The translations under genes and the position numbers were made by a program. From IMG/VR virus record IMGVR_UViG_2718218131_000001: 47,087 nucleotides of DNA; one strand, given 5' to 3'. Below the pieces are notes generated by a model. That model had not been told where the DNA came from. It did no database searches and saw only the letters and a list, made by a program, of their open reading frames with translations. Source of the stretch: a virus (lineage: Duplodnaviria; Heunggongvirae; Uroviricota; Caudoviricetes). Positions within the stretch are counted from its first letter, which is position 1. The number at the start of each line of letters is the position of its first letter. Positions 2,819 through 20,339 of this stretch are shown in pieces.

Positions 2819-5441
<2,623 letters not shown>

Positions 5442-8264: not shown

Positions 8265-8681
8265 TTATACCTCTGAATCAATATCAACCTGATGGTGAGC
8301 AATGGTTTCAACCATGTACCGGATGTGTTCTGCCATGCGCTCCTGAAACTCAACATCGTCATCAAACGCACGGGTAATGGCTTTTTTGCTGGCCCCGTGG
8401 CGTTGCAAATGATCGATGCATAGCGATTCAAACAGGTGCTGGGGCAGGCCTTTTTCCATGTCGTCTGCCAGTTCTGCCTCTTTCTCTTCACGGGCGATCT
8501 GCTGGTAGTGACGCGTCCAGCTCTGAGCCTCAAGACGATCCTGAATGTAATAAGCGTTCATGGCTGAACTCCTGAAATAGCTGTGAAAATATCGCCCGCG
8601 AAATGCCGGGCTGATTAGGAAAACAGGGAAGGGGGTTAGTGAATGCTTTTGCTTGATCTCAGTTTCAGTATTAATATCCAT
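8265..8681 (-). CDS. gam: RecBCD inhibitor Gam
   Basis: 138-aa [39 protein letters not shown]... matches lambda Gam. Confidence 0.95.
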
Positions 8682-13085: not shown

Positions 13086-13957
13086 ATGACAAATACAGCA
13101 AAAATACTCAACTTCGGCAGAGGTAACTTTGCCGAACAGGAGCGTAATGTGGCAGATCTCGATGATGGTTACGCCAGACTATCAAATATGCTGATTGAGG
13201 CTTATTCAGGCGCAGATCTGACCAAGCGACAGTTTAAAGTGCTGCTTGCCATTCTGCGTAAAACCTATGGGTGGAATAAACCAATGGACAGAATCACCGA
13301 TTCTCAACTTAGCGAGATTACAAAGTTACCTGTCAAACGGTGCAATGAAGCCAAGTTAGAACTCGTCAGAATGAATATTATCAAGCAGCAAGGCGGCATG
13401 TTTGGACCAAATAAAAACATCTCAGAATGGTGCATCCCTCAAAACGAGGGAGGTTCCCCTAAAATGAGGGACATCCCTCAAAACAGGGGGACACAAAAGA
13501 CACTATTACAAAAGAAAAAAGAAAAGATTATTCGTCCGAGAATTCTGGCGAATCCTCTGACCAGCCAGAAAACGATCTTTCTGTGGTTAAACCGGATGCT
13601 GCAATTCAGAGCGGCAGCAAGTGGGGAACAGCAGAAGACCTGACCGCCGCAGAGTGGATGTTTGACATGGTGAAGACCATCGCACCATCAGCCAGAAAAC
13701 CGAATTTTGCAGGGTGGGCTAACGATATCCGCCTGATGCGTGAACGTGACGGACGTAACCACCGCGATATGTGTGTGCTTTTCCGCTGGGCCTGCCAGGA
13801 CAACTTCTGGTCCGGTAACGTGCTGAGTCCGGCCAAACTCCGCGACAAGTGGACCCAGCTCGAAATCAACCGTAACAAGCAACAGGCAGGCGTGACAGCC
13901 AGCAAACCAAAACTCGACCTGACAAACACTGACTGGATTTACGGGGTGGATTTATGA
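13086..13957 (+). pseudogene. O: Replication initiator O, split across two frames in the iteron region
   Basis: Track ORF 13086..13643 matches lambda O N-terminal domain; track ORF 13583..13957 in another frame matches the O C-terminal domain; frame changes at the iterons. Confidence 0.7.
13435..13491. repeat. ori iterons (three TCCCTCAAAACGAGGGA-type repeats) inside O
   Basis: TCCCTCAAAACGAGGGA, TCCCCTAAAATGAGGGA and TCCCTCAAAACAGGGGGA at about 20-bp spacing, followed by an A-rich stretch. Confidence 0.75.
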
Positions 13958-17641: not shown

Positions 17642-18261
17642 GACTCGAAAGCGTAGCTAAATTTCATTCGCCAAAAAGCCCGATGATGAGCGACTCACCA
17701 CGGGCCACGGCTTCTGACTCTCTTTCCGGTACTGATGTGATGGCTGCTATGGGGATGGCACAATCACAGGCCGGATTCGGTATGGCTGCATTCTGCGGTA
17801 AGCATGAACTCAGCCAGAACGACAAACAAAAGGCTATCAACTATCTGATGCAATTTGCACACAAGGTATCGGGGAAATACCGTGGTGTGGCAAAGCTCGA
17901 AGGAAATACTAAGGCAAAGGTACTGCAAGTGCTCGCAACATTCGCTTATGCGGATTATTGCCGTAGTGCCGCTACGCCGGGCGCAAGATGCAGAGATTGC
18001 CACGGTACAGGCCGTGCGGTTGATATAGCCAAAACAGAGCAGTGGGGGATAGTTGCTGAGAAAGAGTGCGGAAGATGTAAAGGCGTCGGTTATTCAAGAA
18101 TGCCAGCAAGCGCCGCATATCGCGCTGTGACGATGCTAATCCCAAACCTTACCCAACCCACCTGGTCACGCACTGTTAAGCCGCTGTATGACGCTCTGGT
18201 TGTGCAATGCCACAAGGAAGAGTCAATCGCAGACAACATTTTGAATGCGATCACACGTTAG
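17638..18261 (+). CDS. Q: Late-gene antiterminator Q
   Basis: 207-aa ORF MRLESVAKFHSPKSPMMSDSPRATASDSLSGTDVMAAMG... matches lambda Q including zinc-finger cysteines. Confidence 0.95.
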   Translation: MRLESVAKFHSPKSPMMSDSPRATASDSLSGTDVMAAMGMAQSQAGFGMAAFCGKHELSQNDKQKAINYLMQFAHKVSGKYRGVAKLEGNTKAKVLQVLATFAYADYCRSAATPGARCRDCHGTGRAVDIAKTEQWGIVAEKECGRCKGVGYSRMPASAAYRAVTMLIPNLTQPTWSRTVKPLYDALVVQCHKEESIADNILNAITR

Positions 18262-18303
18262 CGCCATGATTGCCACGGATGGCAACATATTAACGGCATA
18301 ATA

Positions 18304-18332
18304 TTGACTTTTTGAATAACTTTGGGGAAACT
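18304..18332 (+). promoter_or_regulatory. pR' late promoter
   Basis: TTGACT-17 nt-GAAACT directly downstream of Q; aligns with the recalled lambda pR' (TTGACT...TAAATT); similarity to lambda ends just after it. Confidence 0.5.
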
Positions 18333-18540
18333 TGACACCAATAATGGGCGTTTTTTACATGTCATTGATGAGTCTCAATAACCTGCCGCCGAGTAGTTTT
18401 TATGCTCTGAATTGTATTTGTGTAGTAAACATGCTGACTGCAATGTAATAGAGTTTTTTTAGCCTGTAACCTCTTGACGGCATTGAATTGCTTTTGTTAT
18501 GAGTTGTAAGCCAATGTTATCATCTTGTATTGGGGTGGTT

Positions 18541-19011
18541 ATGAAGGATGGTGCGCTGCTCAGGAGTTCTTCACTTTTTATTGCCTACATGGGATGCCTT
18601 GGATGGGGGAGTGCTTATTTCTATGGATGGGGTACTTCTTTTTACTACGGCTTCCCATGGTGGATTGTAGGTGCAGGTGTTGATGATGTTGCCAGAAGTT
18701 TATTTTTTGCAGTTATCGTCATTGCTATATTTCTTATCGGTTGGGGTATTGGTGTTGTATTCTTTTTCGCAGTGAAAAGAAAACATTCTATGCAAGAGCT
18801 AAATGTATTTCGCCTTTATTTTGCTGTGGAATTATTGTTTGTGCCGGCAATTATTGAGTTTTCTATATTGAGACAGAAGATTCAGGTACCTCTTTTGCTA
18901 CTGTCAGCAGCGATTGCGCTGGCGGTTACAATTTCGATAAGATCTTATGGGCGATTTTTATCGGTATCATGCTTCTATGATAAGCCATTTATAAAAAAAA
19001 CATTTTTTTGA
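18541..19011 (+). CDS. Multi-pass membrane protein (W/G/F-rich), first ORF of the pR'-proximal cassette
   Basis: Track ORF 18499..19011; start placed at ATG 18541 with GGGGTGG upstream; about 4 predicted TM helices; very AT-rich. Confidence 0.5.
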   Translation: MKDGALLRSSSLFIAYMGCLGWGSAYFYGWGTSFYYGFPWWIVGAGVDDVARSLFFAVIVIAIFLIGWGIGVVFFFAVKRKHSMQELNVFRLYFAVELLFVPAIIEFSILRQKIQVPLLLLSAAIALAVTISIRSYGRFLSVSCFYDKPFIKKTFF

Positions 19012-19015
19012 GATT

Positions 19016-19210
19016 GTGATGATTGCTTTTGTGGCATATTTCTGGCTTTTTTCATTTCTGACAGGATATTACAAACCACAGTTTAAGAAAGAATATGAAA
19101 TGATTAATTATAATGATGGTTGGTATTATGTTCTTGCTCGTTATGATAATTGTCTGGTTTTGTCTACTTCTTTCAATGCAGGTAGTAAAAGGTTTGTCAT
19201 TTATCAATAA
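19016..19210 (+). CDS. Small hydrophobic protein, possibly the displaced C-terminus of the upstream membrane protein
   Basis: 64-aa ORF starting 5 nt after the upstream stop, +1 frame; one hydrophobic helix; joins the upstream ORF if the A8 tract at 18993..19000 loses one base. Confidence 0.4.
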   Translation: MMIAFVAYFWLFSFLTGYYKPQFKKEYEMINYNDGWYYVLARYDNCLVLSTSFNAGSKRFVIYQ

Positions 19211-19688
19211 GCACAAGATAAGAATCTTCAGGTTGATATTGTAAGGACCAGAATTTAATTGGCTGCATAAATAATATTTTAAGTTGCAAGTTGGCTATTC
19301 GTAGGAATAGAACCTTAGGCATGCTGAATGCGTTTTCTGAACATTGTTTTATAAACTGTGTCTGCTTGCTGTTGTGATCCTGCTTTTAGTGATGGTGATG
19401 ATGGATTTCACCAGCAGGATAATGTTGGTACTGACTGATGGCGCTCTGGTCTGCGGCATTGTGGTATTGCTGTGGCCGATGATGAAAGAACAGAATGAAT
19501 AATTCTTGACTTTTTTGTTTACTGTTTATTAAAAAATCAACCGCATGGTGAATCCTCCTTGGAGGGGCTAAATGATCGAGTTTTAAGGGCACGTAGCGAG
19601 TTCTGTTTGATCATTGCAGAACTTAGCGGGAGGCGCCATGCGTACATCACTAATGTTATTTCCTTCTATCATTTTCCTTGTGAGTTCT

Positions 19689-19715
19689 GGCTGCGCATGG
19701 CGCGGCCTTTTTTTT
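19689..19715 (+). terminator. Strong rho-independent terminator in the late leader (tR'-like position)
   Basis: 8-bp GC-rich stem GGCTGCGC / GCGCGGCC with one G-U pair, followed by T8. Confidence 0.6.
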
Positions 19716-20123
19716 ATGACCTGCCACTGGCAGATGGTCATCCTGTGATTTGATTCCGGTTCCGGCTTTTTAACTCTGTTCCTGTACACGGGAGAAATTC
19801 TATGTCGATTAATCGTTATGATATTGGTTACAAGAAGTACCACGTATTGTGTTGAGATAGAAAGCATGGTGCCAGAGGTAAATGCAGCAGCATAATAAAA
19901 AAGAGCCAGCGCAGAAGAGAACGGGTAAAAGAGTCTGCGCTGGCGTGGGGATATTCCCCGTGGAGAAATGATATGTAACACACATCGGGAACCTTTCTAT
20001 ATAAACATTATCATTATTGTCAATCATAACAGTCAGGTATTATGACGTTTATGCATCAGGGCCATCAGGAATTAACTGGTGGCTTTTTATTGTTGTCAGC
20101 TTCCGGATAACGGGAGACGGGGT

Positions 20124-20339
20124 ATGTACCAGATGGAAAAAATAACAACAGGTGTGTCATACACCACGTCAGCGGTGGGGACGGGATACTGGCTACTGCA
20201 GTTGCTGGACAAAGTCTCTCCGTCCCAGTGGGTGGCAATAGGTGTGCTGGGAAGTCTGCTGTTTGGCCTGCTGACGTATCTGACAAATCTTTATTTCAAG
20301 ATTAAAGAAGATAAGCGTAAGGCTGCGAGAGGTGAATAA
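20124..20339 (+). CDS. S: Class II holin (phage 21 S21-type pinholin)
   Basis: 71 codons from MYQMEK (dual Met start); ...[40 protein letters not shown] matches S21. Confidence 0.85.

Follow-up and report, generated by a model that had tools for sequence, protein, structure and literature searches.

A probable moron module with a broken membrane-protein gene and small RNAs downstream of pR' in an Escherichia coli lambdoid prophage

Introduction

What does a lambdoid prophage carry between its late promoter and its lysis genes, and does the resident prophage express it? We addressed this question in a 47,087-base stretch of DNA (IMG/VR virus record IMGVR_UViG_2718218131_000001; hereafter the window, meaning the whole of that stretch), which is identical to positions 1833835-1880921 of the Escherichia coli SLK172 chromosome (NZ_CP017631.1). 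The window holds a lambdoid prophage that runs from the integrase to the tail fibres and is decaying, as seen from a frameshifted replication (O-type) gene, insertions of the insertion sequence IS100 and of an IS21-family element, and several further pseudogenes. Directly downstream of the gene for the antiterminator Q and of the late promoter pR', a first-pass annotation made from the sequence alone had described an AT-rich cassette with a multi-pass membrane protein, possibly of Abi/CPBP type and possibly expressed from the prophage without Q.

We report that window positions 18349-20123 represent, with a probability that we put at about 80%, a decayed instance of an accessory ("moron") module. 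The module is widespread: many lambdoid prophages of E. coli, a large group, have it downstream of Q/pR' and ahead of their lysis genes. In the window copy the membrane-protein gene is dead and small RNAs (sRNAs) are the surviving output. The module is already catalogued: it is annotated in phage 434, Pfam and PHROG families exist for it, and one of its parts, the sRNA PasD1, has been published.

Foreign DNA lies between pR' and the lysis genes

Morons as defined by Juhala et al. (2000) are inserts that separate genes which adjoin each other in related phages, that differ in base composition from the phage backbone, that have a promoter and a terminator of their own and that are expressed from the repressed prophage. 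Alignment of the window with lambda continues through pR' and the Q-binding element and stops at about 18348, some 9 bases past the inferred pR' start, and unrelated DNA extends from there to the lysis genes, covering about 1.78 kb up to the holin start at 20124. GC content across 18150-20100 is 0.31-0.44, as against about 0.50 on both flanks. The insert has its own terminator, a hairpin at 19689-19707 followed by T8, which coincides with the published 3' end of PasD1. Two statements of the first-pass annotation, that similarity to lambda ends just past the pR' hexamers and that an AT-rich stretch of about 1.8 kb replaces the lambda late leader, are thus borne out.

It had also seen no terminator hairpin between pR' and the cassette, and our scans and folds agree. 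The scan is empty up to 18541 and finds no terminator-like site on the plus strand anywhere in 18340-19688; the leader (18340-18545, 206 nt) folds no better than its shuffles (z -0.6); and neither scan nor folds reveal an intrinsic terminator of the lambda tR'/6S type about 200 nt past the pR' start. Phage 434 has a terminator directly before the segment that it shares with the window, a 9-bp hairpin with U8 (-12.5 kcal/mol, z -3.5), of which the window keeps a relic ruined by a 4-nt deletion and substitutions. Because the 434-type terminator survives here only in this form, transcripts from pR' meet no obvious stop before the cassette.

The pR' region also differs from that of lambda in small ways. 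Its -10 hexamer, GAAACT, is further from consensus than the TAAATT of lambda; the -10-like element of the early transcribed region (18340-18345) reads AATAAT in the window and AACGAT in lambda, which brings the sigma-dependent pause element closer to consensus. Both variants recur in phage 2B8 and in prophage PP4 of enteropathogenic E. coli (EPEC) E2348/69. We take the pR' start to be near 18340 and the pause element to be where homology with lambda pR', rather than measurement, places it.

The position of the cargo had been called a classic moron slot, and its foreign composition, the terminator-free run from pR' to the gene and the overall layout agree with that call: Tree et al. (2014; PMC4104026) described an arrangement in which pR' is followed first by protein-coding moron genes and then by genes for convergent sRNAs. 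As in the slot known from lambdoid and Stx phages (Juhala et al., 2000; Tree et al., 2014), cargo of foreign composition follows Q/pR' in the window, and convergent Hfq-binding sRNA genes come next, before the lysis genes; unlike there, the cargo is a dead membrane-protein gene and a DUF3927 gene, with no toxin.

The module is shared by many E. coli prophages

Over the Q-to-lysis interval the window is 98.3-98.4% identical to phages 2B8 and 434 and up to 100% identical to E. coli genomes (megablast). Of 5,426 complete E. coli genomes, 682 contain at least 80% of the interval. The membrane-protein gene is carried by three phage records only, one of 434 and two of 2B8. A comparison of this interval in related prophages had been proposed as a check, and it brings out a shared module in 434, 2B8, PP4 and E. 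coli O26:H11.

In EPEC E2348/69, PP4 (NC_011601, about 1058356-1061056) has an architecture identical to that of the window, with the same Q protein, PasD1, minus-strand element and holin type, and its cassette differs at 6 positions; unlike in the window, its membrane-protein gene is intact (WP_001302581.1). The Q protein WP_001235460.1 is common to SLK172, O26:H11 and PP4. Phages 434 (OL657226.1, gp68-gp70) and 2B8 (NC_049952) have the same gene order as the window: membrane-protein gene, DUF3927/"TciB" gene, PasD region, terminator. Phage 434 differs from the window as follows: its antiterminator is Q82-like and its pre-module terminator is sound, where the window has a lambda-type Q and the ruined relic; its membrane-protein gene is intact and a full SASA esterase gene comes after the module, where the window has a broken gene and a deletion. 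Homology to the esterase region of 434 and 2B8 is gone after about 25 bases, at about 19826; the full gene follows PasD in 434, 2B8 and the second E2348/69 prophage with the module, PP2. On the SLK172 chromosome the segment is also present at a second place, and an intact paralogue may exist in the same cell.

The two reading frames are pieces of one broken gene

Both open reading frames (ORFs) of the first-pass annotation, 156 codons at 18541..19011 and 64 codons at 19016..19210, are present at those coordinates, but they are not separate genes: both are pieces of a single 238-residue frame for an inner-membrane protein of the TfpB family. All homologues begin at the ATG equivalent to 18541 and are 237-238 residues long, so that the true extent of the gene is 18541-19258. 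The frame is single and intact in phage 434, phage 2B8, O26:H11 strain 11368 and both E2348/69 copies, whereas in the window the uninterrupted frame of about 237-238 residues that marks the family is broken by a run of eight A and a TAA codon (Table 1). In the SLK172 genome, the PGAP annotation labels it a "frameshifted" pseudogene.

A 261-nt probe laid over both lesions matches 682 genomes. Two of the 682 are 100% identical to it and so carry both lesions, two genomes are one position off, and 36 others among the matches listed are two positions off. Since both lesions occur in 2 of 682 genomes, since PGAP calls a frameshift and since the homologues are uninterrupted, the split is, to judge from these alignments, a rare and recent inactivation and not a designed two-ORF arrangement. 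The 156- and 64-residue ORFs should accordingly be merged into one pseudogene in the annotation.

Table 1. Features of the Q-to-lysis interval, and decay sites and an effector gene elsewhere in the prophage (window coordinates)
Feature	Position	Strand	Details and basis
Lambda-type antiterminator Q gene, 207 aa	17638..18261	+	PF03589, E 1.2e-57; WP_001235460.1
pR'/qut region	18304..18345	+	-35 TTGACT 18304-18309, -10 GAAACT 18327-18332; alignment with lambda NC_001416
Ruined relic of the phage 434 pre-module terminator	18380..18401	+	-2.2 kcal/mol, z 0
Two overlapping sigma-70-like promoter candidates	18474..18523	+	Consensus scan
Pseudogene of 238-aa TfpB-family (PF27470) inner-membrane protein	18541..19258	+	Alignments; PGAP "frameshifted"
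A8 run (A7 in intact copies), +1 frameshift	18993..19000	+	Alignment
TAA nonsense codon (TCA in intact copies; C>A), last 16 residues lost	19208..19210	+	Alignment
Intact 52-aa DUF3927/"TciB-like" gene, TTG start, two hydrophobic segments	19344..19502	+	PF13064, phrog_1470, WP_000499454.1
Candidate PasD1 promoter, TTGACT 19506-19511, A/T-rich -10 region 19529-19535	19506..19535	+	Read from the sequence
PasD1 sRNA, 173 nt, seed UGUGAG, intrinsic terminator 19689-19715	19543..19715	+	Identity to NC_011601
Relic of the start of a SASA/NanS-p-type esterase gene, rest deleted	19802..19826	+	Alignment
Convergent Esr41-like sRNA, strong terminator	19895..19984	-	Rfam Esr41 full length; fold
Second terminator-like hairpin, 11 pairs and T-run	20058..20086	+	Consensus scan only
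P21-type class II holin, first lysis gene	20124..20339	+	PF04971, E 1.4e-32
IS100, early left region	3574-5375		Decay site
Frameshifted O-type replication gene	13086-13957		Decay site
IS21-family insertion, 3' of the tail-fibre genes	44057-46364		Decay site
NleG-family type III secretion effector gene, right prophage end, 3' of the tail-fibre genes	46554-47087		

Parts that survive in the window

Window positions 19543-19715 are identical (173/173) to PasD1 of E2348/69 (NC_011601, 1060260-1060432), and the published PasD1 probe and seed sequences are found in the window. The coordinates, northern blot, Hfq dependence and seed of PasD1 come from work on E2348/69 by Pearl Mizrahi et al. (2021; PMC8550237, Table S6 and Fig. 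S5), and what we say of expression, Hfq dependence and targets throughout is taken from published work on this near-identical copy. A candidate promoter just upstream (Table 1) has a spacing that fits the published 5' end at 19543. The first strong terminator had been placed at 19689..19715, and the position is right, the hairpin at 19689..19707 with its T-run being the first plus-strand terminator after pR' in our scan; what had been missed is that, given the 173/173 identity, it is PasD1's own 3' end. In lambda-Q prophages of the window type, the PasD1 terminator is the first one after pR', and we infer that it would double as the tR' equivalent for Q-modified polymerase.

The Rfam family STnc100 (RF02076) aligns with 19513-19718 over its full length and with a low E value (about 1e-6), with a score of 37.7 that falls below the gathering threshold of 47; PasD1 shares its stem-loop order and terminator. 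Zhu, Shabalina and Storz (bioRxiv 2026, 10.64898/2026.05.13.724894) reported a common ancestor for PasD and STnc100, noted Esr41 matches near PasD, and placed pasD of phage 2B8 upstream of the esterase gene. In phage 434, gp70, a 62-residue "putative membrane protein" (L001 3662-3850, corresponding to window positions of about 19559-19753), overlies the PasD2-type sRNA; it is probably not a coding gene, because a 1-nt indel between PasD1- and PasD2-type copies shifts its frame.

Convergent to PasD1 lies a minus-strand element that folds strongly (-30 kcal/mol, z -6.0). It is reminiscent of Esr41 (RF02676), with which it shares the order of stem-loops, the terminator and a full-length match, although at 32.3 bits (E 4e-4) it stays below the Rfam gathering cut-off of 102 and by that criterion is not a member of the family. 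Its equivalent in E2348/69 (1060613-1060654, minus strand, labelled E2348C_1013) was found by RNA-RNA ligation mapping (RIL-seq) to be an Hfq-bound partner of the entC and dnaK 5' untranslated regions, and that position is abundant and Hfq-dependent, with a baseMean (mean normalised count) of 2064 and a log2 fold change of -2.9 in an hfq deletion strain (PMC8550237). Assignment of the element to PasA or PasC was rejected, since its terminator alone aligns with them. A 132-residue minus-strand ORF annotated by PGAP at 19583-19981 (WP_012578864.1) has no PHROG match and is probably not a gene; both it and gp70 of phage 434 overlap experimentally supported sRNAs, and their annotation should be revised.

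Between the broken gene and PasD1 lies an intact 52-residue DUF3927 gene, whose product scores 53 bits against PF13064 (E 3.4e-14), above the gathering cut-off of 25. This gene is akin to tciB of phage P1, matching both PF13064 and the "TciB-like" family phrog_1470, and the window differs from P1 in having no TerB-like gene beside it. The name TciB reflects the P1 operon neighbourhood with a TerB-like gene and not a tested function. A literature search for TciA, TciB and TciC returned P1-type naming and unrelated papers on Trypanosoma typing only. The live products of the module in the window are likely to be PasD1, the Esr41-like sRNA and perhaps the DUF3927 protein. On the lysis side, the second terminator-like hairpin ends 38 bases before the holin start, and Q-modified polymerase would have to pass it too.

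Expression of the module in lysogens

We turned to published RNA sequencing of E2348/69 (DESeq2 baseMean; PMC8550237, Table S2) to ask whether the repressed prophage transcribes the module. The membrane-protein gene reaches 147 in PP4 and 226 in PP2, as compared with 6 and 69 for Q and 5.4 and 3.5 for the holin, so that lysogens transcribe the intact gene at a level far higher than that of the late genes; PasD stands at 8652 (PasD1, PP4) and 11017 (PasD2, PP2). Expression from the prophage without Q, as the first-pass annotation had proposed, is thereby partly supported for the intact gene in this strain; as to the route, a promoter of the gene's own is favoured over pR' alone, the route that it had named.

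Two overlapping sigma-70-like candidates precede the gene. The first combines TTGACG (18474-18479) with TGtTATGAG ending at 18503, and the second TTGTTA (18494-18499), after an 18-nt spacer, with TGtTATCAT ending at 18523. Plasmids of enterotoxigenic E. coli (ETEC), where there is no Q, pR' or phage context, carry a 59%-identical copy that retains the block CCTCTTGACG...TTTGTTATG... upstream. The Salmonella homologue STM1630 is reported to have its own mapped -10 box, mutation of which silences the gene in ST313 (10.1101/689075). As the candidates are kept in the non-phage plasmid copy, as STM1630 is reported to have its own -10 box and as family members occur outside prophages, a promoter of its own is likely to drive the membrane-protein gene, in preference to pR' read-through alone.

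A CII-binding motif annotated in 434 (TTGYN6TTGY, equivalent to window positions 18494-18507) was not adopted. By our own estimate this pattern is expected several times by chance in 47 kb, and its spacing to the -10 is, as we take it, unlike that of lambda pRE.

Several points weigh against the reading of the window as a conversion module expressed in the lysogen. Both promoter candidates are consensus matches with an imperfect -10, and promoter-like sites are no more numerous in the region than in shuffled sequence. The expression evidence concerns the E2348/69 copies and not SLK172 itself. Those copies, in PP2 and PP4, are distinguished by only 3 of 744 nt; counts assigned to either one are therefore not independent and cannot tell which copy or promoter is active; read-through from pR' in PP4 is neither shown nor excluded by them. 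Production of the 156-residue fragment, which retains four of five helices, is still conceivable. Finally, "lysogenic conversion" says when the module is expressed and not what the TfpB-family protein does, on which sequence-library and fold searches gave no usable lead.

The TfpB family and its genomic neighbourhoods

The restored 238-residue sequence matches phrog_1521 (E 1.7e-154), and PF27470, whose family name is TfpB, is precomputed on all 108 of the 108 homologues found. The family is small: a profile search recovers 71 representatives at E <= 1e-3 among 1.84 billion, with distant members, each labelled "hypothetical", in Neisseria, Gallibacterium, Pasteurella and Klebsiella. Conservation is highest in the first 60 residues, which are rich in aromatic residues and glycine (AYxGxLGWGSAYFYGWGxSFYYGFPWW...ARSL). 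An AlphaFold2 model built from a 39-sequence alignment that included the distant members (predicted local distance difference test, pLDDT, 80.5; predicted template modelling score, pTM, 0.74) has five long helices and a five-stranded C-terminal domain, in keeping with the multi-pass membrane protein originally proposed; an earlier model from a 24-sequence alignment was too poor (pLDDT 60) and was discarded. Fold searches with the model gave no specific match and none to a viral or CPBP-like fold. When the fragment, the restored protein and the distant homologues were scanned against NCBIfam, PADLOC and a copy of Pfam that lacks PF27470, nothing above noise came up, and among PADLOC-DB models no family was hit at E up to 1 by the intact protein, the DUF3927 protein or the Salmonella homologue. 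Literature on "TfpB" consisted of type IV pilus papers and did not contain the origin of the Pfam name.

Within prophages, family members lie downstream of three types of Q. TfpB-family genes repeatedly adjoin lpxR, which encodes a lipid A 3'-O-deacylase, in three arrangements: in 434 and PP2, in P0019 loci with pmrD, and on the Citrobacter rodentium chromosome, where the lpxR-tfpB pair occupies the same frmA/tar site as sseJ-STM1630-steB in Salmonella. On ETEC plasmids, a gene encoding a 57-59%-identical "hypothetical protein" is oriented divergently to eltAB, with some 870 bp between it and eltA, and has STb and EAST1 nearby; another "hypothetical protein" gene of the family is found in 106 records of Shigella plasmids that, at about 200-234 kb, match the virulence plasmid pINV in size. 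The gene also occurs beside iroBC and bor/iss.

STM1630 shows 46% identity in a full-length alignment and has the same length, and like the window gene it encodes an inner-membrane protein on horizontally acquired DNA. It differs in being a chromosomal orphan between sseJ and steB, effector genes of Salmonella pathogenicity island 2, with no phage genes around it and no clear phenotype reported. It is reported to be induced in macrophages and silenced in ST313 by promoter single-nucleotide polymorphisms, and its deletion causes no defect in intramacrophage replication (10.1101/689075); hypermotility was seen in a screen of mutants marked with a resistance cassette, a kind of result for which a later paper urges caution.

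Possible roles of the intact protein

This pattern of contexts suggests a role in host interaction or the envelope at least as much as in phage exclusion. One tentative possibility is that the intact protein, carried along with virulence cargo, acts on the envelope or in host interaction, perhaps in remodelling of lipid A or the outer membrane. It is favoured by the repeated adjacency to lpxR in three arrangements, by the neighbours eltAB/STb, sseJ-steB, iroBC and bor/iss and the 106 Shigella plasmid records, and by the reported macrophage induction of STM1630 and its silencing through promoter polymorphisms in ST313. Against this, co-location may come from shared phage ancestry of Q-region cargo and not from function, loss of STM1630 leaves intramacrophage replication unaffected, and the hypermotility result stems from a screen of a cautioned type.

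That the intact protein, dead in the window, is instead a superinfection-exclusion or other anti-phage factor at the inner membrane seems to us rather unlikely. A prophage-borne inner-membrane protein expressed in the lysogen has the usual profile of Sie- and Imm-type proteins, and the gene is found after three types of Q; set against this are the lack of PADLOC similarity and of a viral fold match, the many copies outside prophages beside toxins and effectors, and the macrophage induction reported for the Salmonella copy (10.1101/689075), which points to host interaction and away from phage defence.

A broader proposal, which we hold to be doubtful, would treat intact TfpB proteins as an uncharacterised class of inner-membrane lysogenic-conversion proteins that accompany loci for toxins and effectors (eltAB, pINV, sseJ-steB, lpxR and the post-Q slot of Stx/LT-II). 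Their common role would lie in exclusion, in physiology related to toxins or in remodelling of the envelope, and the window would hold a dead copy.

The idea of the first-pass annotation fares worse. An intact Abi/CPBP-type multi-pass protein, made constitutively from pR' without Q and protecting the lysogen against phages or bacteriocins, would fit the terminator-free stretch from pR' to the gene, a membrane protein in the moron slot and transcription of the intact gene in lysogens. The guess had been drawn from an ELLF motif, which carries no signal because its E is not conserved among homologues. Tests for membership of Abi/CPBP (PF02517) by profile, by the motifs EExxxR, FxxxH and HxxxN and by a conserved histidine found no profile match, no EExxxR, no HxxxN and no conserved His. 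The remote-homology search that the annotation had suggested, Abi/CPBP profiles included, turned up nothing in Pfam, NCBIfam or PADLOC. Membership of Abi/CPBP is rejected by sequence, motif and fold, and we consider this explanation very improbable.

We give hardly any credence to the idea that the split is no defect and that slippage of RNA polymerase or ribosomes on A8 restores the frame to yield regulated fused and split forms: the break does sit in A8, followed by CA and T7, and homopolymer runs of this type are known slippage sites, yet the aligned or annotated intact copies (434, 2B8, PP2, PP4 and O26) have A7, 36 other entries among the matches listed lack one base relative to the query, A8 combined with TAA occurs in 2 of 682 genomes, the TAA at 19208 would truncate the product even after slippage, and the same prophage holds several other pseudogenes.

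Discussion

The reading that we prefer, a decayed copy of a shared accessory module, can be put as a working model, in which the promoter of the gene, the role of the PasD1 terminator and any function of the membrane protein are inferred. The intact module would comprise four parts: a 238-residue TfpB-family inner-membrane protein with five predicted helices and a small C-terminal beta domain, a DUF3927 membrane protein of 52 residues, PasD1 as an Hfq-dependent sRNA that has a promoter and a terminator to itself, and a convergent Esr41-like sRNA. Such a module would be lysogenic-conversion cargo, dispensable for phage growth. The repressed prophage would transcribe it, probably from sigma-70 promoters of the module's own, and read-through from pR' may add to this. 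In the window prophage a frameshift and a nonsense codon have killed the membrane-protein gene, leaving as output both sRNAs and perhaps the DUF3927 protein. The sRNAs would act in trans on host mRNAs through Hfq-assisted base pairing, PasD1 by way of its seed UGUGAG. On induction of late transcription by Q, the modified polymerase would have to pass the PasD1 terminator, as the tR' equivalent, to reach the lysis genes.

Taken together, the window copy itself matters little, the module being catalogued and its protein gene a pseudogene. The remaining interest lies in the TfpB family as a whole, and the wider point is a modest one: a narrow, well-conserved and never characterised family of membrane proteins is found beside several major enterobacterial virulence loci.

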